Origin: Bacteriovoracaceae bacterium
Lineage (GTDB): Bacteria > Bdellovibrionota > Bacteriovoracia > Bacteriovoracales > Bacteriovoracaceae
NCBI GenBank assembly: GCA_043721975.1
Contig: JAYSPR010000124.1
Coordinates: forward strand, 1 to 61,570
Direction of reading: 5' to 3'
Length of the DNA: 61,570 nt
Below, piece by piece: positions 31,743 to 41,027 of the stretch (positions within the stretch are counted from its first letter, which is position 1; every line of letters begins with the position of its first letter). The notes beneath the pieces were generated by a model. The model saw only the letters and a program-made list of their open reading frames with translations. It did not search any database and was not told the origin of the DNA. The position numbers and the translations under genes were made by a program.

Positions 31743-32027
31743 ATGAAAAAATTGAACGCGACAGACATGATTGATGAAGCAACAGTAGAATTAGAGAAAT
31801 TCGCCCCTAGGAATTCTCATGTTGAAATTGATGTTAAAGAAGATCCTATAGGGCACTTTAGCACGAACATCAAGCTGCAGACAAAGTATAGAACTTACTT
31901 TGCTAAGAAAGAGGATATCTTTCTTTATAAAAGTTTTTCTAAAGCGATTAAGGCTATTAAAGCTCAGTTGGAGAAAAAACGGACTCATCATATTCATGGG
32001 CATACGAGTTTAAAAAATTCACACTAA
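31743..32027 (+). CDS. HPF/RaiA-like small protein
   Basis: GGAGG SD; size and the ...FAKKED..LY.SF..AI..I..QL.K.R pattern resemble HPF/S30AE. Confidence 0.55.
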   Translation: MKKLNATDMIDEATVELEKFAPRNSHVEIDVKEDPIGHFSTNIKLQTKYRTYFAKKEDIFLYKSFSKAIKAIKAQLEKKRTHHIHGHTSLKNSH

Positions 32028-32038
32028 TATTTTACGAC

Positions 32039-32078
32039 TGTAAAGTTCGATGATCCATCTTGATCATCGAACTTTACA
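32039..32078. terminator. 17-bp perfect inverted repeat between convergent genes
   Basis: TGTAAAGTTCGATGATC-CATCTT-GATCATCGAACTTTACA, overlapping the stop codon at 32074. Confidence 0.7.
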
Positions 32079-33525
32079 AGGTGAAGTCTGCGCAGGCTTC
32101 TTGCGAATCAGCCTTCTTTTTTTCTTGATATTGCTTATTATACATTTGACTAACAAGCTCCTGGACTTTGGTGGCTTTTTCCCAAATTACGGCGTATTTT
32201 TTGGGTAGGCCTGAATAGAGCTCTTTTACTTTAAGTAAGTTGGGATTTTCGGCGATTACTTTTTTTCTAGCTGCATCGATTTTTTCAAATTTTTCTATAA
32301 CAAATTCTATTCGATCAATTTCGCTTTGATTTATGGGCTTCTTTTTTCTTTCTAATTCCAAATCTGCTTTGTAAAGAGGTATATCTTTGGGGAGATATAG
32401 TCTAAATAGAGCTTCAATTTGTAGTTTCTCAAATTTTTTCAATGGTTTTTTGACACCATTACTGCCACGTGAATATTCTAAATATTCAATACTAATTGTC
32501 TCTTCGAGCTTCATATGATTGAAGTTATGTAAATCAGCTATTAATTTGTCTTGAAATTGCTTGTAATCTTTAAGTGCTTCAACTAAATCACTTAAGCCAG
32601 AAGTTTGGTTGGTCAATTTCCCATTTATATCAACGAATGCTTGGATTTGTTTCATCAAAACATTAAAATCGTTTTCTCTCGTGCACATTCCAACTTGATT
32701 CGCCACAGAGTTTAGGAGTGGGCTTAGCTTATCAGCTTTACTATCTTCAGTGATAATATTTAAATATGGACTAATGAGTGAGTATAAATCTTGATTCAAA
32801 GCTAAACCAGCCTTAGTAGAAATCATGGGAAAAGCGGGCTGTGTGTAATTTTTTTGAGTTTTTAAAAAAACATTCTCTAGCGACATACCAGGTTCCATTT
32901 GTGAATAAAATTTCTTAGCAAAATCGGAATAGGCAAAATGATTTGGCCCAGAAGCAGCAATTACACAGGTATTTTTATTAGCTAATATAAGACTGTTTCC
33001 CGAGTGACAACTAAAATCTAAAATTCCCAGCTTTATTCCTTTTGATAATGCAAGATCTGATAGAACTTTTAACTTATCAATTGAATCTGACTTGGGACCT
33101 TCAATTTTTGTTAGGTCTTCTAAATTTGCTCCTGTCATAGCAATAGAATGAGTTTGATATTTTTCAGTCTTAACACCGCCATGAGTTTCAATTATAATTA
33201 AAAGTGATTCACCGGCTTGGATCTTTCCAGATTTAATTTTGTTAACATAATCTTGAATTACCAAGTCATAGTTTTGCGATGTAAAGCTACTATTTTCAAC
33301 CTTTAATTCATCTTTTAAAATGGTCTCTGTTTCGCTGTGGCCTGAGTTAAATACAGATTTAATATTTAAATTCAGATCACTTTTCTTTTTTGCAAGTTCT
33401 CTAAGATTTGGATCAAAGATAGTATTATTCTTTTTTCCTTCTCCACCTCCTCCGAACAAGATGACTTCCAGAGAGTAACTAGGCAAGGACTTGCACATTA
33501 ATAAAAATAATATAATTTTTTTCAT
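32074..33525 (-). CDS. Secreted clan CD (caspase/legumain-fold) cysteine peptidase-like protein, copy A
   Basis: Signal peptide; LLIIIETHGG and LGILDFSCHSG give the His-Gly...Ser-Cys dyad pattern; helical C-terminal half. Confidence 0.7.
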   Translation of the reverse strand: MKKIILFLLMCKSLPSYSLEVILFGGGGEGKKNNTIFDPNLRELAKKKSDLNLNIKSVFNSGHSETETILKDELKVENSSFTSQNYDLVIQDYVNKIKSGKIQAGESLLIIIETHGGVKTEKYQTHSIAMTGANLEDLTKIEGPKSDSIDKLKVLSDLALSKGIKLGILDFSCHSGNSLILANKNTCVIAASGPNHFAYSDFAKKFYSQMEPGMSLENVFLKTQKNYTQPAFPMISTKAGLALNQDLYSLISPYLNIITEDSKADKLSPLLNSVANQVGMCTRENDFNVLMKQIQAFVDINGKLTNQTSGLSDLVEALKDYKQFQDKLIADLHNFNHMKLEETISIEYLEYSRGSNGVKKPLKKFEKLQIEALFRLYLPKDIPLYKADLELERKKKPINQSEIDRIEFVIEKFEKIDAARKKVIAENPNLLKVKELYSGLPKKYAVIWEKATKVQELVSQMYNKQYQEKKKADSQEACADFTL

Positions 33526-33887
33526 TGGGTACAGCCTATTTTTTTTAGAAATTTAAAATTTTCATTTTTGTTTATTACTAATGGATCTGGCAAAATTAAT
33601 TTAATTTCAGTGACGTTTGAAGCTTCACCTTTATATCCATCAAAATTTTTTGCAGTAATGTTAGCACTTATGTAAAGGTCTCTATATCCTATCAAAGAAG
33701 CTTGGCTTGTTTTTGATATTTCTAATTCAATTTCTGATTGAGTTTTTGCATTTACTATTAGGTTAAGTTTATTACCTATGGCTTTTTTAACATAAGCCTT
33801 TACTTCAAATTGATCGCAATTCAAGACAGTTGAAGCATGGAGGCTAAGGGAGGTAATTGATAAAATAGAGAATATAATTTTTTTCAT
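33522..33887 (-). CDS. Small secreted partner protein, copy A (121 aa)
   Basis: Signal peptide from ATG 33887; N- and C-terminal Cys, SEI.L.IS and PDPL; ATGA overlap with the peptidase. Confidence 0.8.
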   Translation of the reverse strand: MKKIIFSILSITSLSLHASTVLNCDQFEVKAYVKKAIGNKLNLIVNAKTQSEIELEISKTSQASLIGYRDLYISANITAKNFDGYKGEASNVTEIKLILPDPLVINKNENFKFLKKIGCTQ

Positions 33888-34114
33888 ATGTACTTTTAAA
33901 ATATTATCATTCTTCGGTTTTTTATTTAAGTAAGAATTTAATGCCATAGCCTGGTAGTTGAAACATTCAACGTCAATTCAATCAAGATTTATACCCCATC
34001 AAAATAGTAGAGCATTTAGCATGGCTAAAGTCTTAGAATGCTAATCCGAATATAAGTCGATATTAGCTCACTTAAATATAAAAATAATAATGGTATACTC
34101 ACTACTGGGTGCGC

Positions 34115-34480
34115 ATGAAAAATTTAATATATCTTATGATTCTTTTATTTCCACTTTATGCGTATTCTGAACGCGTAAAAAAATGTGATCTTTACCATGT
34201 CGTCGGTTATGTTAAAAAAGACGCTAAGAGTATTCTTAAGCTTGTCATTAATGAAAAATCTAAATCTGAAATTCAGTTATTCATCAGCACCTCAAACATT
34301 TCAAAATTCTCAGCCTATTTAGATACTTTTATTTCAGCTGAGGTTAGCGTTAATCAATTTGATGGTTTTACTGGAGTAGCCTCTGATCCAATCAATATAA
34401 AGCTCTCTGTTCCCGATCCACTTCTAATCAAGAATGACGATTCCTTTAAGCTGGTATCGAAAAAAGGCTGCGCTAAATGA
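34115..34480 (+). CDS. Small secreted partner protein, copy B (121 aa)
   Basis: Paralog of 33522..33887 (CD...YVKK, SEIQLFIS, FDG, PDPL, KKGC); ATGA overlap. Confidence 0.8.
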   Translation: MKNLIYLMILLFPLYAYSERVKKCDLYHVVGYVKKDAKSILKLVINEKSKSEIQLFISTSNISKFSAYLDTFISAEVSVNQFDGFTGVASDPINIKLSVPDPLLIKNDDSFKLVSKKGCAK

Positions 34481-35928
34481 AAATTATAATTTTTGCATTT
34501 ATTATTTTTACTTCTACAAATTCCTATTGCCTCGAAACAATACTCTTGGGTGGTGGAGGAGAACCAAAAAAGCAATCGACAATATTTGATGAATCTTTAA
34601 AGATCCTGGCTTCCAAAAAAGAAGCTTTGGGTTTGAAGGTTCATTCTGTATTTAATTCTGGTCATGCAGATACTGAGCTTATCTTGAGCACTCAATTAAA
34701 AGCAACCAATACCAGTTTTACTTCAGAAAATTTTGACAAAACTATTGAGAATTTTGTGGCAAAGATTGAGTCTGGAGAAATTGCAGAGGGCGAGAAGCTT
34801 TTAATCATCGTCGACAGTCACGGCGGAGCAAAACAGAAAAATCAGCAAACACACTCCATCGCCATGGTTGGATCTAACTTAACAGATCTCTCAAAAGTTG
34901 AAGGTGAGCACACGGAATCTATGGATAAATTGAAAGCACTATCTGACATTGCCCTGGCTAAAGGAATTAAGCTAGGGATACTTGATTTCAGCTGCCACTC
35001 TGGAAACTCGCTTTCACTGGCAAATAAAAATACATGTGTCATCACTGCTTCAGGGCCTAACCATTTTGCTTTTGCTAGTTTTCCATCTCAATTCTACAAT
35101 GAAATGAAGCCCGGATTATCTCTAGAAGATGTTTTCCTCAATACCAGAAAAGTTTTTACATCCCCATCTTTTCCCATGATCTCAACCTCGGCCGGTTTAA
35201 GTTTGAATGATGAGTTGTATTCTTTGTTTTCTGCTTATTTAAATACAACATCAAAAGATGGCATAGCTGATAAGCTTAGTCCCTACATAAGTAAGATCGC
35301 CACTCCAATTGGTATATGCCAAAGAGAGGATGAGTACCAAATTCTCTTGAAAAAAGTTCAAGATTTTGTGGCTATTAATGGAAAGTTAACCAGTCAGTTT
35401 GGTGCAACTGAAGATTTAGTTGAAGCTCTTGCTAATTATAAAAAATACCAGGATGACTTAATTCAAGAGATCAGCCCTATTAATGCTAAATTAAAAGAGT
35501 CTATAGAATTGGAGTATTATGTGTATGTAAATCGCCCAGGGCTGAGGCTCAAAGTTCCGAAAACTGAAAAAATTCAGATTGAAGACCTCTTCAAAATTTA
35601 CAAGAAATCTAATATTCCATCATTAGAAGCACTACTAGAAGAGGAACTAAAAAAGATTCCAACAAATCAGACAGCTATCGATGAATTAGAGGTGAGTGTT
35701 TTTAAATATAAAAAAATTGATGAACTAAGAAAAAAAGTTCTAGAACAAAATACTGGTCTTATTACACGTGTAGAAAATATTTATGATAGTTTACCTGCTA
35801 AATATGATGAACTATGGCAAAGAGCTGTGAAAATTTCTGAGCTTGCTAATCATATGTACATGAAAGGTTATAAAGATAAAAAAATATTAGAATCAGCAAG
35901 TGACGCCTGTTCTGATTTTAAGCTTTAA
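34477..35928 (+). CDS. Secreted clan CD cysteine peptidase-like protein, copy B
   Basis: LLIIVDSHGG and LGILDFSCHSG; collinear with copy A and also 483 aa. Confidence 0.7.
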   Translation: MKIIIFAFIIFTSTNSYCLETILLGGGGEPKKQSTIFDESLKILASKKEALGLKVHSVFNSGHADTELILSTQLKATNTSFTSENFDKTIENFVAKIESGEIAEGEKLLIIVDSHGGAKQKNQQTHSIAMVGSNLTDLSKVEGEHTESMDKLKALSDIALAKGIKLGILDFSCHSGNSLSLANKNTCVITASGPNHFAFASFPSQFYNEMKPGLSLEDVFLNTRKVFTSPSFPMISTSAGLSLNDELYSLFSAYLNTTSKDGIADKLSPYISKIATPIGICQREDEYQILLKKVQDFVAINGKLTSQFGATEDLVEALANYKKYQDDLIQEISPINAKLKESIELEYYVYVNRPGLRLKVPKTEKIQIEDLFKIYKKSNIPSLEALLEEELKKIPTNQTAIDELEVSVFKYKKIDELRKKVLEQNTGLITRVENIYDSLPAKYDELWQRAVKISELANHMYMKGYKDKKILESASDACSDFKL

Positions 35929-35980: not shown

Positions 35981-36316
35981 TTACTTAATTGGAATAATTT
36001 CGACATCTCCCAGGACTTTCGCTCGACATGAAAGCCTAACCGTTTTTCCCGGGTAAAGATCCTTTATCGAGTTCACTGTATCCGTTTCCACAGCTCCCAT
36101 GGGAGAGAGATTTTCTATTCCCTTAATCACATGAATGCGACAAGAGCCACATGATCCTGCCAAGCAGCCATGAGGTAATGAGAGCGCTTGCCTTTCGAGC
36201 TCGTCATATAAAACAGCACTTAAATTAACTTTATAGTTACGTGGAGCCTTGGATTCTTTTTCTTCAGCAGGGTCAAGATGTACTAACACGGTGGGCATAT
36301 TTATTTTATCCTTCAA
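35981..36316 (-). CDS. 2Fe-2S ferredoxin
   Basis: GCLAGSCGSC...RLSC. Confidence 0.88.
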   Translation of the reverse strand: MKDKINMPTVLVHLDPAEEKESKAPRNYKVNLSAVLYDELERQALSLPHGCLAGSCGSCRIHVIKGIENLSPMGAVETDTVNSIKDLYPGKTVRLSCRAKVLGDVEIIPIK

Positions 36317-36383
36317 AGAATATTATCTTTCAATTGTAAAACACGATGCAAAATTTATCCAACTTTAAAAGTGAGGACTTGAG

Positions 36384-37493
36384 ATGTTTACCTTTGAAAA
36401 ATTATATTCTATGGGCCACGAAGAAGTCGTTTTTTTCTCCGACTCTTCTTGTAACCTAAAAGCAATCGTTGCTATTCATAACACAACTTTAGGACCTGCT
36501 TTAGGTGGGACAAGAATGTGGAATTATAATTCAATCGATGAAGCTATCGAAGATGCTCTTAGGCTTTCTCGAGGGATGACTTATAAAAATTCAATCTCTG
36601 GATTAAATCTTGGCGGCGGTAAAGCCGTTATCATGGGAGATCCTACAAAAGATAAATCAGAAGCACTTTTTAGATCATATGGACGATTTGTTGAATCTCT
36701 CAATGGTCGTTATATCACTGCTGAAGATGTGAATACGACAGTTGAAGACATGGAATTTATTTTTACTGAAACGAGTAACGTCACAGGTGTTGCTGAAATT
36801 AATGGTGGTTCAGGTAACCCAAGCCCGTGGACGGCTCGCGGTGTCTTTCGTGGAATGGAAGCAAGTTGTTTAAAGGTTTTCGGCGATAAATCACTTAAAG
36901 GAAAAGTCGTAGCACTTCAAGGAGCTGGTTCAGTAGGGACTCATTTAGGAAGACATTTATTTGAAGCCGGCGCAAAAGTTATTTTTACCGATATGAATGA
37001 AACGAACATTGCTCGATTTAAAGAAACTGTACCAAATGCAGAATTCGTTGCTCTCAACGATATCTACGATGTGAAAGCTGATGTCTACGCACCATGTGCT
37101 CTTGGAGCAACTGTTAATGATCAAACTATTGATAGATTAAAAGTAAAAATTATCTGTGGTGCTGCTAATAACCAACTTGCAGAAAATCGTCACGGAGATA
37201 TGTTAAAAGAAAAAGGCATACTTTATGCTCCAGACTACCTCATCAATGCAGGTGGAGTTATGAACGTGTCGATTGAGTTTGAAGGCTGGTCGGCAGAAAA
37301 AGCCACAAAGATGGTTGATAAAATTTATGATACAACTCTTAAAATCTTTAAACTTTCTGATGAGCAAAATATTCCTGTTTATAAAGCCACTGACTTAATG
37401 GCCGAACAAAGAATTGCCTCAATCAAAAATATTAGAGGTAAGTACCTAGGAAACTTAAGCCACCGTTTCCCTGGTCGCAAGTCACGTCAATAA
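36384..37493 (+). CDS. Leu/Phe/Val dehydrogenase
   Basis: LGPALGGTR, GMTYK, LGGGKAVI, YITAEDV, GAANNQL and YAPDYLINAGG. Confidence 0.93.
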   Translation: MFTFEKLYSMGHEEVVFFSDSSCNLKAIVAIHNTTLGPALGGTRMWNYNSIDEAIEDALRLSRGMTYKNSISGLNLGGGKAVIMGDPTKDKSEALFRSYGRFVESLNGRYITAEDVNTTVEDMEFIFTETSNVTGVAEINGGSGNPSPWTARGVFRGMEASCLKVFGDKSLKGKVVALQGAGSVGTHLGRHLFEAGAKVIFTDMNETNIARFKETVPNAEFVALNDIYDVKADVYAPCALGATVNDQTIDRLKVKIICGAANNQLAENRHGDMLKEKGILYAPDYLINAGGVMNVSIEFEGWSAEKATKMVDKIYDTTLKIFKLSDEQNIPVYKATDLMAEQRIASIKNIRGKYLGNLSHRFPGRKSRQ

Positions 37494-37503
37494 AATGCTA
37501 TTC

Positions 37504-37537
37504 GCCAGTACGGCTTTAATGCAGTACTGGTGTTTTC
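37504..37537 (+). terminator. Probable intrinsic terminator
   Basis: GCCAGTAC...GTACTGGT followed by GTTTTCTT. Confidence 0.6.
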
Positions 37538-37606
37538 TTCTCGGTTAATGAGGACTTCTTTACCTTCCTATCTTTAAGTGTCAAAAAAAATTAAAATATA
37601 CCTATT

Positions 37607-38707
37607 ATGATGAAGTGGATTTTTACATTCATATTTTCATTTCTTTTTACTATCAATGCCTGGGCCATTGATTTTGAAGATGCTATTTTTCCAGAGTTAG
37701 CAACAAGCGGCCGAGCGCTTGCTATGGGAAATGCATTCATTTCAAAAGTAGATGATGCTTCAGCTGCTTTTTATAACCCTGCCGGTCTCGGCAGTGTACG
37801 TTTTCCACATCTACATTTATCAAATTTTCATCTGGAAGTGAACAAAGGATTTCTTTCAGCAGGTACAGGTGGAGCTCTGAGCGATGCCATCTCAAATTCG
37901 ACAAAAATGTTTTCTCTCGATGGTACTCGTGGTGTCCTCGTTAATAATGTAGGGGCCATTGCTCACTCACGTTTTCATTTACTTCCCAATTTCACTTCAC
38001 GTTTTTTTAGTGCGGGATATTTACTTGCTAAAAGAACGAGAGCTGTTGTGACGAATGGAACTTCTGCTACCGGTTTTGAATACGCAGATAGACTCGATCA
38101 TGGGCCATATGCTGCTTTAAATATTTCACTTTTTGGAGGTGTTTTTAAAGCTGGTGTCTCTGCCATTTTTCTCAATAGAAAAGAACTTATCGGAACAGCA
38201 GACCCAAGGAATACATTGAATGTTGATAGTTCTTATAAAAAAGGAAATGGATTTATTGTCACGACTGGAGTGAAACTGACTGTACCTATTATTTTCTTAC
38301 CTATTTTTTCCGCAACCATTCATAATTCAACTGCCCAAAAATTTCAAAATCCAAGTGGAGCCGGTGCACCCGATACAATTAAATCAAGTGTGGATGTTGG
38401 CTTTTCTTTAACACCACAAATTTCTAACAATAGTCGAGTTCACCTTGAAGTGAATTATAAAGATTTAGGCTCAGCCTATTCTGGAGTCACCATGGCCAGA
38501 AAAATATTAGTCGGGATGGAGCTAGATTTTTCTCGCGTTTTCTTTTTCAGGCTTGGCTATGGAGATGGTTTTGGATCAGCAGGTCTCGGAGTGAAATCGC
38601 AGCTTGTGGAGTTCGATATCACCACTTATGCCGTCGATACGACAGCAGCAACTTTCAGGGGTCGAGAAGACCGTCGCTTCGCGCTCACACTTTCAAGTGG
38701 TTTCTAG
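37607..38707 (+). CDS. Outer-membrane beta-barrel protein (PorV/TraF/FadL-like)
   Basis: Signal peptide, RALAMGNAF..DDASAAFYNPAGL, amphipathic strands, C-terminal Phe. Confidence 0.75.
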   Translation: MMKWIFTFIFSFLFTINAWAIDFEDAIFPELATSGRALAMGNAFISKVDDASAAFYNPAGLGSVRFPHLHLSNFHLEVNKGFLSAGTGGALSDAISNSTKMFSLDGTRGVLVNNVGAIAHSRFHLLPNFTSRFFSAGYLLAKRTRAVVTNGTSATGFEYADRLDHGPYAALNISLFGGVFKAGVSAIFLNRKELIGTADPRNTLNVDSSYKKGNGFIVTTGVKLTVPIIFLPIFSATIHNSTAQKFQNPSGAGAPDTIKSSVDVGFSLTPQISNNSRVHLEVNYKDLGSAYSGVTMARKILVGMELDFSRVFFFRLGYGDGFGSAGLGVKSQLVEFDITTYAVDTTAATFRGREDRRFALTLSSGF

Positions 38708-38813
38708 AACTTAAGTCACCAATGCCCAGAGTCAAAAACTCAGTAATTTAGACATTTAAAACACTTTTAGGTAAAGTCATTTCAATTAAATTTTAATCAC
38801 TCAAGGTGGAATA

Positions 38814-41027
38814 ATGTTGGAAAAGACATCTAAATCTAAAGTATCGACGATTGTCGCGAACACAAGCAATAAGACAAACACTCTTAGTAAAACTGATAAG
38901 TCTAAAGTCGAGCTCGCTAAAAAATATAATTTAGGCAAAAAAGAATTGCTTCATATGCTCACGAATGTCTACACATCACGAAAAGTAGATGATGCAGAAA
39001 TTTCAATGAAGAAACAATCAAAAGCTTTTTTTCAAATTTCAGGTGCAGGACATGAAGGTATCTTAACTGCCGCCGCGATGGTTTTAAAACCAAAGCATGA
39101 TTGGTTTATTGGTTACTACCGCGACCGTGCTCTATGCTTAGGCTTAGGAGTCACTCCTTACGAAATGCTTTGTCAGGCCAATGGAAACTTAGGAGACACA
39201 GCTTCTTACGGTCGAATGATGCCTGCTCACTGGGGAAATAAAAAACTTAATATTGTTAACAAGTCGTCTTGTACGGGCACGCAATTTCTTCAGGCCTGTG
39301 GCCTTGCTGAAGCAGGTATTTGGTTTAAAACTTTGCGTGATGAACATAAAGTTGATGTTAGTGGAATGGACTTTCACGACGACGAAATTGTTTACGTCTC
39401 AACAGGTGACGGAACCATTGCTCAAGGTGAATTTTGGGAAGGACTCACAACTTCTATCGTCAATAATCTTCCAGTGCTTTTTATGGTGGAAGATAATGGT
39501 TTTGCAATCTCAACACCGACTTACGTGCAGTATCCTGAAGGATCGATTTCAAAAACTCTTGCAAACTTTCCAGGTCTTAAAATTTTTAATTGTGACGGAT
39601 GTTGTCCAATTGATTCTTATGCAACGATGGTAGAAGCAGCAAACTATATTCGTAAAACAAGAAAACCTGCTCTTGTTCATGCGACTGTAACAAGACCATA
39701 CTCTCACTCTTTGTCTGATGATCATGGAATGTATAGAACTAAGGCGGAGCTCGCCGAAGAAGGCCTTCGAGATGTCTTTAATGCTTTTCCAAAGTTTTTA
39801 GTTGAAGCTGGCTTCATTACTGAAACTGAAAGAGAAGATGTTTTGAAAAAAGTTTCAAGTGACGTTAAAGCAGCAATGGATAAAGCGATAAATACTGAAT
39901 GGCCCAAAGTTGAATCTGTTATGGATCACCTTTATTCAGAGACAGTAGACATTACTGGATCGCAATTTGATGTTGCTCCAAATTTCACAGGTAAAGACGA
40001 TGTGCCAATGGCCGCATCGATTAATAAAGTTTTAAGGACTGAATTTGCTAAAAATCCAATGCTCAGAATGTGGGGCGAAGATGTTGCAGACTTTTTTGAA
40101 AAAGAACGTCTTAATAATCCAGAACTCAAAGGTAAAGGCGGAGTTTTTAAACTAACGGCCAATGTTCAACGTGAATCTCGCGATGGGCAAGTTTTCAATT
40201 CACCCCTTGCTGAAGCGAACGTTATTGGTCGGGCAATCGGTATGGCCATGAGAGGGATCAAACCAGTGGTTGAAATCCAGTTTTTCGATTATATCTGGAC
40301 AGCTTATATGCAACTCAAAAATGAAATGGCAACACTCCGTTACCGTTCTGGTGGGGATTTTAAATGCCCAATGGTTGTAAGGGTTCCAATTGGTGGTTAC
40401 CTAAAAGGGGGAGCGATTTATCACTCTCAATCAGGTGAATCACTCTTTACTCACGTTCCTGGCATCAGAGTCGCTTTTCCATCTAACTCAGCGGACGCTG
40501 CAGGATTACTCCGAACAGCAATCCACGGCGATGATCCAGTCATGTTTTTAGAGCATAAACATTTATATTACCAAGGTTATAACCGTGCTGCAGATCCTGG
40601 GGAAGAGTTCATGATTCCTTTTGGGAAAGCTCGCATTGCACGCACTGGCTCTGATGCAACGATTGTTGCTTGGGGAGCACTTGTTCAAAAATCTATTGAA
40701 GCAGCAAAAAAATTAGAAGCATCAACAGGAAAATCGGTTGAAGTCATCGACCTTAGAACTCTTGCCCCTTACGATTTTGAAGCCATTAGAAAATCAATTG
40801 CAAAAACGTCAAGACTCATGATTGCTCATGAAGAACATAAGACTTCTGGATTTGCTGGGGAGATCGCTGCTCGCGTGAATGAAGAGTGTTTTGAGCTTTT
40901 GGATGCGCCGATTTTAAGAGTGGGTGCTCTAGATGTTCATTGTGCTTATAACCCAGGACTTGAAGATGTGATTTTACCTCAGATAAGTCATGTGGAAGAA
41001 GTTTTAGAAAGGCTCTTAAAATATTAA
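38814..41027 (+). CDS. 2-oxoacid (probably branched-chain) dehydrogenase E1, fused alpha/beta
   Basis: GYYRDR, TPP motif GDG..NN, HSLSDD, EIQFFDY, HSQS, DPVMFLEHK and EVIDLRTL; neighbours the Leu dehydrogenase. Confidence 0.92.
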   Translation: MLEKTSKSKVSTIVANTSNKTNTLSKTDKSKVELAKKYNLGKKELLHMLTNVYTSRKVDDAEISMKKQSKAFFQISGAGHEGILTAAAMVLKPKHDWFIGYYRDRALCLGLGVTPYEMLCQANGNLGDTASYGRMMPAHWGNKKLNIVNKSSCTGTQFLQACGLAEAGIWFKTLRDEHKVDVSGMDFHDDEIVYVSTGDGTIAQGEFWEGLTTSIVNNLPVLFMVEDNGFAISTPTYVQYPEGSISKTLANFPGLKIFNCDGCCPIDSYATMVEAANYIRKTRKPALVHATVTRPYSHSLSDDHGMYRTKAELAEEGLRDVFNAFPKFLVEAGFITETEREDVLKKVSSDVKAAMDKAINTEWPKVESVMDHLYSETVDITGSQFDVAPNFTGKDDVPMAASINKVLRTEFAKNPMLRMWGEDVADFFEKERLNNPELKGKGGVFKLTANVQRESRDGQVFNSPLAEANVIGRAIGMAMRGIKPVVEIQFFDYIWTAYMQLKNEMATLRYRSGGDFKCPMVVRVPIGGYLKGGAIYHSQSGESLFTHVPGIRVAFPSNSADAAGLLRTAIHGDDPVMFLEHKHLYYQGYNRAADPGEEFMIPFGKARIARTGSDATIVAWGALVQKSIEAAKKLEASTGKSVEVIDLRTLAPYDFEAIRKSIAKTSRLMIAHEEHKTSGFAGEIAARVNEECFELLDAPILRVGALDVHCAYNPGLEDVILPQISHVEEVLERLLKY

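Follow-up and report, generated by a model that had tools for sequence, protein, structure and literature searches.

A two-gene module of Bdellovibrionota that couples a predicted clan CD peptidase to a small protein with a predicted OB fold

We analysed a stretch of 61,570 nucleotides (the window) from a Bacteriovoracaceae bacterium (contig JAYSPR010000124.1 of assembly GCA_043721975.1). It contains two divergent units (33887->32074 and 34115->35928), each of 1814 nt, with a gap of 227 nt between them. In each unit, or arm, an open reading frame of 121 amino acids is coupled via an ATGA overlap to one of 483 amino acids. By its predicted fold and catalytic dyad, the large protein is a clan CD peptidase; the small protein is predicted to form an oligonucleotide/oligosaccharide-binding (OB) barrel. 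We found that the two genes lie side by side across Bdellovibrionota, and it is this conserved gene pair, not the mirror arrangement in the window, that is the finding. The pair is a genuine two-gene module, and apparently an undescribed one. A literature search on caspase-, legumain- and metacaspase-type proteases of Bdellovibrio, Bacteriovorax and Bdellovibrionota returned no description of it, as judged on titles and the openings of abstracts; subscription papers, bioRxiv supplements or MEROPS may name the family. We lean slightly towards reading the module as an exported, self-restrained cysteine protease with a cognate OB-fold inhibitor that protects the predator's periplasm.

The features of the locus are:

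32074..33525, minus strand: large gene A (P0001, 483 amino acids), with signal peptide, core (residues ~19-240), linker, helical insert and C-terminal tail; His115 codon 33181-33183, Cys173 codon 33007-33009, Lys266 and Cys281 in the linker, Cys478 in the tail
33522..33887, minus strand: small gene A (P0003, 121 amino acids), with signal peptide, OB-fold barrel, Cys24 and Cys119, NxxTxSE loop and PDPL motif; of the two small copies, it is the one that has diverged further
33888..34114, no strand: divergent spacer of 227 nt, with promoter-like motifs by consensus match only
34115..34480, plus strand: small gene B (P0004, 121 amino acids), predicted five-stranded OB fold and one C-terminal strand
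34477..35928, plus strand: large gene B (P0002, 483 amino acids), architecture as large A; His115 codon 34819-34821, Cys173 codon 34993-34995, Cys281 codon 35317-35319
32039..32078, no strand: AT-rich, perfect 17-bp hairpin that spans the stop codon of large gene A, where two genes converge (z -6.0 and -7.2, 0/200 shuffles)

The unit coordinates, lengths, gap, ATGA coupling and motifs of an original prediction, made from the sequence of this DNA, were all reproduced; His115-Gly116 and Asp170-Phe-Ser-Cys173-His-Ser-Gly are present in both large proteins. Signal peptides of all four proteins were called by eye, and the fold of large A is assigned by homology to the model of large B.

The gene pair and its distribution

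Within the genus of the window genome, all 29 genomes carry the large gene (1-5 copies each, the window genome included) and 28 of the 29 carry the small gene. The large gene adjoins 62 of 65 small matches there (30 upstream and 32 downstream), and the small gene adjoins 63 of 75 large matches; these counts leave out four large rows, three from outside the genus and one weak fragment. Among 117 distinct complete large genes, the partner is upstream of 51, downstream of 49 and on both sides of 2 (102 in all), and a FastTree tree calls for no fewer than 8 switches of gene order. The window genome also has a third pair (contig C264, 3256-5134; L035), with a large gene of 499 amino acids first and a small gene of 122 downstream; the gene ahead of it is presumably a fructose-bisphosphate aldolase. 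The pairing of P0005, P0006, P0123 and P0124 with each other is an assumption from similarity.

Across 301 genomes of the phylum, among which kin are not independent, we found the large gene in 49, the small gene in 46 and both in 37. A small gene adjoins 43 of the 46 strong large matches. Of the 68 small matches, 50 adjoin a core-family match; a distant caspase-fold protein adjoins 13 of the 16 that we fetched from the other 18, and 2 others were seen to adjoin one, for a total of 65 of 68. With these distant peptidases included, the linkage implies that the partnership spans enzymes that are about 15% identical to P0002. Thus the small gene is linked to a peptidase elsewhere in Bdellovibrionota, in either order, as the original prediction had proposed to check. 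The two proteins also appear to be inherited together: across 100 pairs, the Mantel rho is 0.34 (maximum of 999 permutations, 0.19). Inter-protein covariation in 100 pairs gave no signal above shuffles, with a statistic dominated by invariant columns. Of 76 loci, all named records are from Bdellovibrionota except one titled Proteobacteria.

Loci L204-L211 and L248-L261 encode very divergent secreted caspase-fold proteins (360-800 amino acids), each beside the same type of small partner. Some of these proteins pass the Pfam C13 model, and some show legumain-like N-terminal motifs. A broken small-gene fragment lies at 2504-2692 of L251, from genome G431, which also carries a large gene with no neighbour.

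At one Bdellovibrio locus, gain or loss of the genes can be followed. Records L135 and L134 have the pair flanked by queF and a gene for a 679-amino-acid protein. In genomes G214 and G194, the small gene stands alone at the same locus (records L202 2553-3017 and L203 2356-2955), and a wide-profile search of both genomes found no peptidase; a more distant one is possible. In G082, G265 and G405, which have weak small-gene matches, the wide profile likewise gave no peptidase, with the same possibility of a more distant one. Together with B. bacteriovorus HD100, which has neither gene there, the locus shows three states. A small gene alone at one of them can fit a protective gene that outlasts its enzyme. 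(Here and below, statements attributed to a PMC number cover excerpts of that paper.) The conserved 679-amino-acid protein (L135 957-2996, L202 3028-5064, L203 462-2498) has a lipoprotein-like start and resembles Bd0086; a Bd0086-like protein is represented by one peptide in the prey proteome of PMC11003981. We rejected Bd0084, which PMC11003981 lists as a secreted cysteine protease, as the large protein, as it has 373 amino acids and lies on the other side of a deaminase gene.

The two proteins

A model of large B (P0002), built from 119 sequences, had a mean predicted local distance difference test score (pLDDT) of 95.3. The best Foldseek matches were MALT1 and legumain (E about 1e-5), with caspases also present among 63 matches at E <=0.001. 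VIA gave legumain (Z 16.1; root-mean-square deviation, rmsd, 3.1; 204 aligned), metacaspase 4 (Z 15.9) and OaAEP1 (Z 15.8), and clan CD folds fill the top Foldseek rows and the top 19 VIA rows. A profile of 19 wider relatives matches GSU0716 (9e-10), metacaspase 4 (6e-7), Yca1 and legumain, with the His-Gly and the Cys in register. Among 241 proteins, His115 and Gly116 are present in all and Cys173 in 240; Asp170, Gly176, Cys187, Cys478, Phe37, Asp38 and His126 are also invariant. In the model, His115-Gly116 follows strand 107-113 and Cys173 follows strand 165-170. Foldseek, VIA and the register with metacaspase and legumain therefore agree with the clan CD fold and dyad that had been claimed from the motifs.

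The known families within the clan fit less well. Neither P0001 nor P0002 matches PF01650 (C13); of the 31 relatives scanned, 5 pass its gathering cut-off, namely 1 of the 14 from the core family and 4 of the 17 distant ones. No match to PF00656 is above its cut-off either; there are sub-threshold matches only, with the best (E 0.0008) in a distant relative. The C13 S1 residues Arg44/His45 are absent, and the core family has T-I-F-D there (the position was matched by motif, not by superposition). Where C14B-type enzymes have an Asp two before the catalytic Cys, position 171 is F in 117, L in 55, M in 31 and G in 13 of the 241 proteins, and the invariant Asp170 is one residue further away. Judged by these alignments, the large protein fails the residue tests of both C13 and C14B, with a hydrophobic residue at the -2 position. 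In the ESM Atlas, it falls in an unnamed cluster of 117 members, whose commonest phylum is Bdellovibrionota and which neighbours C13 clusters. HMMER found 776 representatives at E <=0.001, of which 438 at 1e-30. Single-sequence searches of Pfam, NCBIfam, PADLOC and the PDB gave nothing significant for the four window proteins, the core-family profile had no match among PDB sequences, plasmid records had no match, the viral fold library gave giant-virus metacaspases only, and a metagenome scan with P0002 found no locus.

The original prediction took the C-terminal helical part for a prodomain or targeting domain. A free prodomain is not borne out, as the tail is predicted to pack on the core. 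The structural matches of large B extend to residue 483, and in a coupling analysis of 343 sequences, tail residues pair with the core (L109-F481, z 11.6; G167-F481, 9.1; K165-D480, 7.1; I189-L483, 6.1). With the final residues predicted to return to the catalytic core, the helical region (240 residues) is probably an insert. This coupling of the tail to core strands does not agree with a separable LSAM domain at the C terminus, such as legumain has. All sequences checked retain Cys187 and Cys478, which likely form a disulfide that staples the modelled tail to the core.

Two further contacts may restrain the enzyme. The coupling of His174 with Lys266 (z 9.8, rank 12 in the 343 sequences; the H/K pair is present in 257) suggests that the linker around Asp265-Lys266 crosses the active site as a built-in plug. 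There are precedents: Lys225 of AtMC4 sits at the active site of metacaspase 4 (PMC7206013), and the legumain activation peptide crosses the active site (PMC4357240). Cys173 and a Cys near 281 occur together in 337 of the 343 sequences; five have Cys173 only, and the sole sequence that has lost Cys173 also has no Cys near 281. A Cys173-Cys281 disulfide would explain this co-occurrence, and the Cys count is even in 294 of the 343 sequences. This is a hint, from one loss event, of a disulfide lock on the catalytic Cys. The coupling of Cys281 is weak (best partner Arg224, z 5.8; Asn177, z 3.9). Procathepsin X is a precedent for a redox lock, going by the title of a reference in PMC7863939.

Some members of the family are extended at the N terminus. 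In P0246, which carries TPR-like repeats (seen by eye), the catalytic Cys has been lost. Some 30 short, QK-rich repeats are found in P0213, and P0183 and P0191 share a Cys-containing domain.

The small protein, modelled from 93 sequences (pLDDT 87.3), is predicted to form a five-stranded OB barrel (strands 24-35, 41-45, 53-57, helix 59-66, strands 72-80 and 86-97). OB folds dominate its Foldseek and VIA lists. No Foldseek match reached E <=0.001; single-stranded-DNA-binding proteins and the OB domains of tRNA synthetases are listed, with PotA at rank 28. VIA put PotA (potempin A) first (Z 7.3, rmsd 3.2, 75 aligned, 7% identity) and PotD fourth (Z 6.0), near Bacteroidetes lipoproteins and NlpE. 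Of the 93 sequences, 92 have Cys24, 90 have Cys119 and all have Ser51. The beta2-beta3 loop (N46-E47-x-T/S49-x-S51-E52) and P100-D-P102 are conserved motifs. No Pfam family matches more than 2 of the 93 proteins at E <=0.05, and the ESM Atlas gave only matches under 0.9. A simple lipobox pattern occurs in 5 of the 93, each time at the conserved structural Cys, and in neither P0003 nor P0004. Bdellovibrio-type small proteins have an insert of 25 residues ahead of the PDP motif. We found no fusion of the small and large domains among 260 proteins, the four N-terminally extended forms included; no search was made for longer proteins.

As to a physical complex, large B with small B scored an ipSAE of 0.52, as compared to 0.00, 0.00 and 0.09 for controls, with the runs agreeing in at least 94% of contacts and a partner pLDDT of at least 75. 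The ipSAE mark used here was reached by 116 of 157 solved pairs and by 2 of 215 mismatched pairs; scores of <=0.60 cover 18 of those solved pairs and both of the mismatched ones, so the pass is weak. The cognate complex of the original prediction thus gains weak support, with the score well above the best control but in a range that mismatched pairs also reach.

The two arms, their history and their surroundings

Large A and large B are 54.5% identical (64.6% over residues 19-255 and 45.1% over residues 256-483), and the small proteins are 38% identical. Over residues 160-200 of the large proteins, 20 of 36 identical residues have different codons. Synonymous divergence (dS) between the arms is saturated, with 20 of 58 four-fold sites identical. 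The original prediction of synonymous change beneath a conserved protein, of diverged C-terminal halves, and of an old divergence under purifying selection is supported by these comparisons; a simple duplication is not, as the arms have different affinities. Genome G021, a close relative, carries a single module in the orientation of arm A, with the same genes on either side. The large proteins of G021 and of two further close relatives share 66-67% of residues with large A, against 56-58% with large B, and a tree of large proteins rejects an A+B clade (approximately unbiased test, p-AU 0.0016). The small proteins of the same single-copy relatives are 52-58% identical to small B and 35-37% to small A. 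Informative sites split 10:32 (A-like:B-like) in the small gene and 95:48 in the large gene (Fisher p 1e-6), with the best breakpoint, on a flat peak, at codon 14/15 of the large gene. By these sequence comparisons, the two arms are mosaic, in that single-copy relatives resemble large A and small B.

Recombination between the arms may have inverted the centre and so swapped the small genes, a reading that we hold only tentatively; the alternative is fast evolution of small A. Trees of the small proteins do not choose between these (p-AU 0.35, 0.41 and 0.40 for three groupings); an earlier tree leaned, at 79/83, to small A grouped with the relatives, and the promoter of G021 is not clearly B-like. 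We doubt a fuller scheme: an undescribed secreted caspase-fold family of predatory bacteria with three locks (the OB-fold inhibitor, the Lys266 plug and a Cys173-Cys281 disulfide that holds the enzyme inactive under the oxidising conditions of the periplasm and is opened by the reducing contents of the prey) plus an inverted central cassette, so that the true partners would be crosswise (large A with small B and large B with small A).

The original prediction described a mirror-image duplicated module. The paired arms are real, but their geometry is a one-off: eight other clustered cases that we inspected (G005, G023, G028, G064, G086, G284, L109 and L129) are same-strand tandems, and we therefore rejected the mirror layout as a conserved feature. 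In the window it is a local accident. The equal length of the arms is a coincidence, since their indels cancel out, with two gaps of one residue on either side. In two of four sequencing runs, a single contig crosses both arms with flat depth, which argues against a mis-join; both runs are possibly the window's own source, so they are not independent. Contigs of the four runs have no joints that would indicate active inversion of the spacer, and contigs drop rare variants.

Of the sigma-28-like site that had been reported for arm B only, a version is present at 34026-34052 on the plus strand (TAAA at 34026, CCGA at 34046, spaced as at the CCGATA sites of the genome), but it is weak, with a degenerate -10 box (CCGAAT vs CCGATA). 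A search for the exact sigma-28 consensus gave 0 matches, and G021 also has no site. In B. bacteriovorus, TTAAG-N16-CCGATA is found at 92 of 140 attack-phase promoters, and CCGATA is the -10 box of FliA (PMC3627812). Among 92 modules, 16 have CCGATA within 60 nt of the first start, mostly 13-16 nt upstream (shuffles: mean 1.1, maximum 5); the background in the window genome is 52 of 1957. An extended -10-like motif, TGnTAnnnT, is common to G021 and the two arms, by consensus match only (33901-33909, minus strand, and 34091-34099, plus strand, in the window). In both arms it lies about 25-30 nt downstream of CT(C/T)ACTTA, which G021 also has. The extended -10 motif is not enriched across the family (8 of 91, vs 9.3 in shuffles).

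The hairpin at 32039..32078 is, from its sequence, likely a bidirectional terminator. At the corresponding position, G021 also carries a hairpin, but a different one, which suggests selection for termination. Just beyond it, at 31743-32027 on the plus strand, a gene of 94 amino acids has a sub-threshold match to Ribosomal_S30AE (E 0.0004) and is possibly a divergent ribosome hibernation factor; G021 has it at the same place. On the other side, 35981-41027 holds a 2Fe-2S ferredoxin gene followed by genes that resemble those for leucine dehydrogenase and for a 2-oxoacid dehydrogenase E1 with alpha and beta parts fused; G021 keeps this order.

The role of the pair and comparison with known systems

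If the module is a protease with its inhibitor, then both proteins would leave by Sec, the linker at Asp265-Lys266 would lie over the active site as a plug, and the small protein would block the cleft via its conserved beta2-beta3 loop (N46-E-x-T/S-x-S51-E52). The inhibitor would keep the predator's periplasm safe up to the release of the enzyme on the prey, whose proteins the enzyme would then act on. Predators do need self-protection from their own enzymes, as with Bd3460 (PMC4686830). The parts of this reading differ in strength. The large protein is very probably an active protease. The small protein probably binds it. That binding is rather likely to be inhibitory. A role in predation we regard as evenly balanced.

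Several results weigh against the protease-inhibitor reading or its link to predation. Away from contig ends, 11 of the 117 large genes have no detected partner, and 4 more are at contig ends; closer inspection gave 2 of these 11 a probable partner, and partnerless peptidases are mostly on long branches. Of all 80 large matches in the phylum, weak ones included, only 50 have a detected small neighbour. In G023, G064 and L129, one small gene lies between two large genes, so the pairing is not strictly one-to-one. A Z of 7.3 is in the common range for small barrels, OB folds do many jobs, and the small protein has no lipoprotein anchor, unlike the potempins. Neither window arm has a clean FliA box, and the FliA boxes of the family are not independent because they are mostly in one clade. 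The distribution is patchy, with the large gene found in 36 of 121 genomes of the taxonomic family and in 49 of 301 of the phylum. In B. bacteriovorus HD100, the 692-amino-acid Bd0086 ends at 83047 and Bd0087 starts at 83103 (supplement rows of PMC3627812), so neither gene is present at the matching locus; the rest of the HD100 genome was not searched. The patchy distribution and the absence from this locus imply that the family is not core to predation.

Linkage, co-inheritance and the weak complex score would fit any binding partner, and the small protein could instead be a chaperone, activator or targeting subunit that folds, exports, activates or aims the peptidase. The enzyme's apparent plug of its own (His174-Lys266) lessens the need for a separate inhibitor. 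We nevertheless consider this unlikely: G194 and G214 keep a small gene although no peptidase was detected in either, which hardly suits a dedicated chaperone; some 9 large genes whose dyads are intact have no neighbour; and known inhibitors are among the nearest structural matches of the small protein. It is improbable that the small protein is a dedicated substrate or cargo, cleaved or joined by transpeptidation, whose processed form is the effector. A legumain-type ligase (5h0i, Z 15.8) and a glycosylphosphatidylinositol (GPI) transamidase subunit (7w72, Z 14.8) are among the top folds, and the invariant Ser51 (93 of 93) and the PDP motif could be recognition sites. But each gene also occurs alone, the terminal Cys pair would keep a cleaved small protein together, and no conserved basic, Asn or Asp scissile position stands out.

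The same biochemistry could also serve to process proteins of the bacterium's own envelope or to scavenge free proteins, rather than to attack prey. Besides the patchy distribution and the HD100 locus, most modules have no clean FliA box, both arms included, and the flanking genes are housekeeping genes, which would suit this alternative; yet the records are almost exclusively from Bdellovibrionota, and 1-5 copies in every genome of the genus is the pattern of expanded secreted hydrolases, so we see only a small chance that it is correct. We give very little credence to an anti-phage or cell-death module like those of other bacterial caspase-like proteases. The fold is shared and two relatives have sub-threshold matches to NF047832 (caspase, EACC1-associated; E 0.001-0.05), but signal peptides and disulfide-type Cys pairs point to export, PADLOC matches none of the four proteins, and sensor or effector genes are not adjacent in the loci inspected.

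Returning to the protease-inhibitor reading, the pair is a concrete candidate for the means by which predators use proteases and yet leave their own periplasm undigested, and it defines two unannotated protein families with a conserved partnership in predatory bacteria. That HD100 has neither gene at the matching locus may explain why the pair escaped notice. Should the small protein prove inhibitory, a clan CD peptidase would have an inhibitor with an OB fold; the term "OB-fold" does not occur in a review of cysteine-protease inhibitors that we searched (PMC7863939). The two paralogous pairs at one locus offer a ready test of specificity, and the possible redox lock on the catalytic Cys could be tested with purified protein.

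Among known enzymes, legumain-type C13 peptidases (4aw9, 5h0i; GPI8, 7w72) share the caspase-haemoglobinase fold, the His-Gly...Cys dyad, secretion and a helical region after the core. They differ in the S1 pair Arg44/His45 (PMC4357240), as our core family has neither an Arg-His pair before helix 1 nor an acidic residue two before the Cys. The LSAM domain of C13 enzymes is terminal and separable (PMC4357240), whereas here a C-terminal tail running back to the core is predicted to clamp the helical part. Type II metacaspases (C14B; AtMC4, 6w8r; PMC7206013) and MALT1 share the fold (Z 15.9 and 15.5), SCHSG and a large helical insert, and our conserved Lys may occupy the active site in the manner of AtMC4 Lys225. 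Yet AtMC4 has its S1 Asp137 two before the Cys, where our family has Phe, Leu or Met and an Asp three before. Unlike C14B and MALT1, the large protein is likely secreted and predicted to be stapled by a disulfide, and its insert follows the last core strand.

Bd3460 of Bdellovibrio bacteriovorus (PMC4686830) follows the logic proposed here, as a predator's inhibitor of its own secreted enzyme, and one inhibitor can serve two paralogues. It differs in its ankyrin fold and its DD-endopeptidase target, and is unrelated in sequence or fold to the small protein. A further parallel is with the potempin/KLIKK pairs of Tannerella forsythia (PotA-karilysin, 8b2n/8b2q; PotD, 8ehb), in which the genes for a small exported OB-fold protein and a secreted peptidase are likewise neighbours. 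There the OB-fold protein inhibits the peptidase, and PotA acts via its beta2-beta3 loop (PMC9890683); the small protein is like them in its size and its conserved, exposed beta2-beta3 loop. Potempins are outer-membrane lipoproteins, always encoded upstream, and the OB-fold type inhibits metallo- and serine peptidases (PMC9890683). Our module instead has a terminal Cys pair and no lipobox, either gene order, and a clan CD cysteine peptidase, and the likeness is one of predicted fold and gene linkage. By the features tested, the module is not a member of the potempins, of C13 or of C14B; by analogy, it most likely works as the potempin/peptidase pairs do, except that the target would be a clan CD enzyme.

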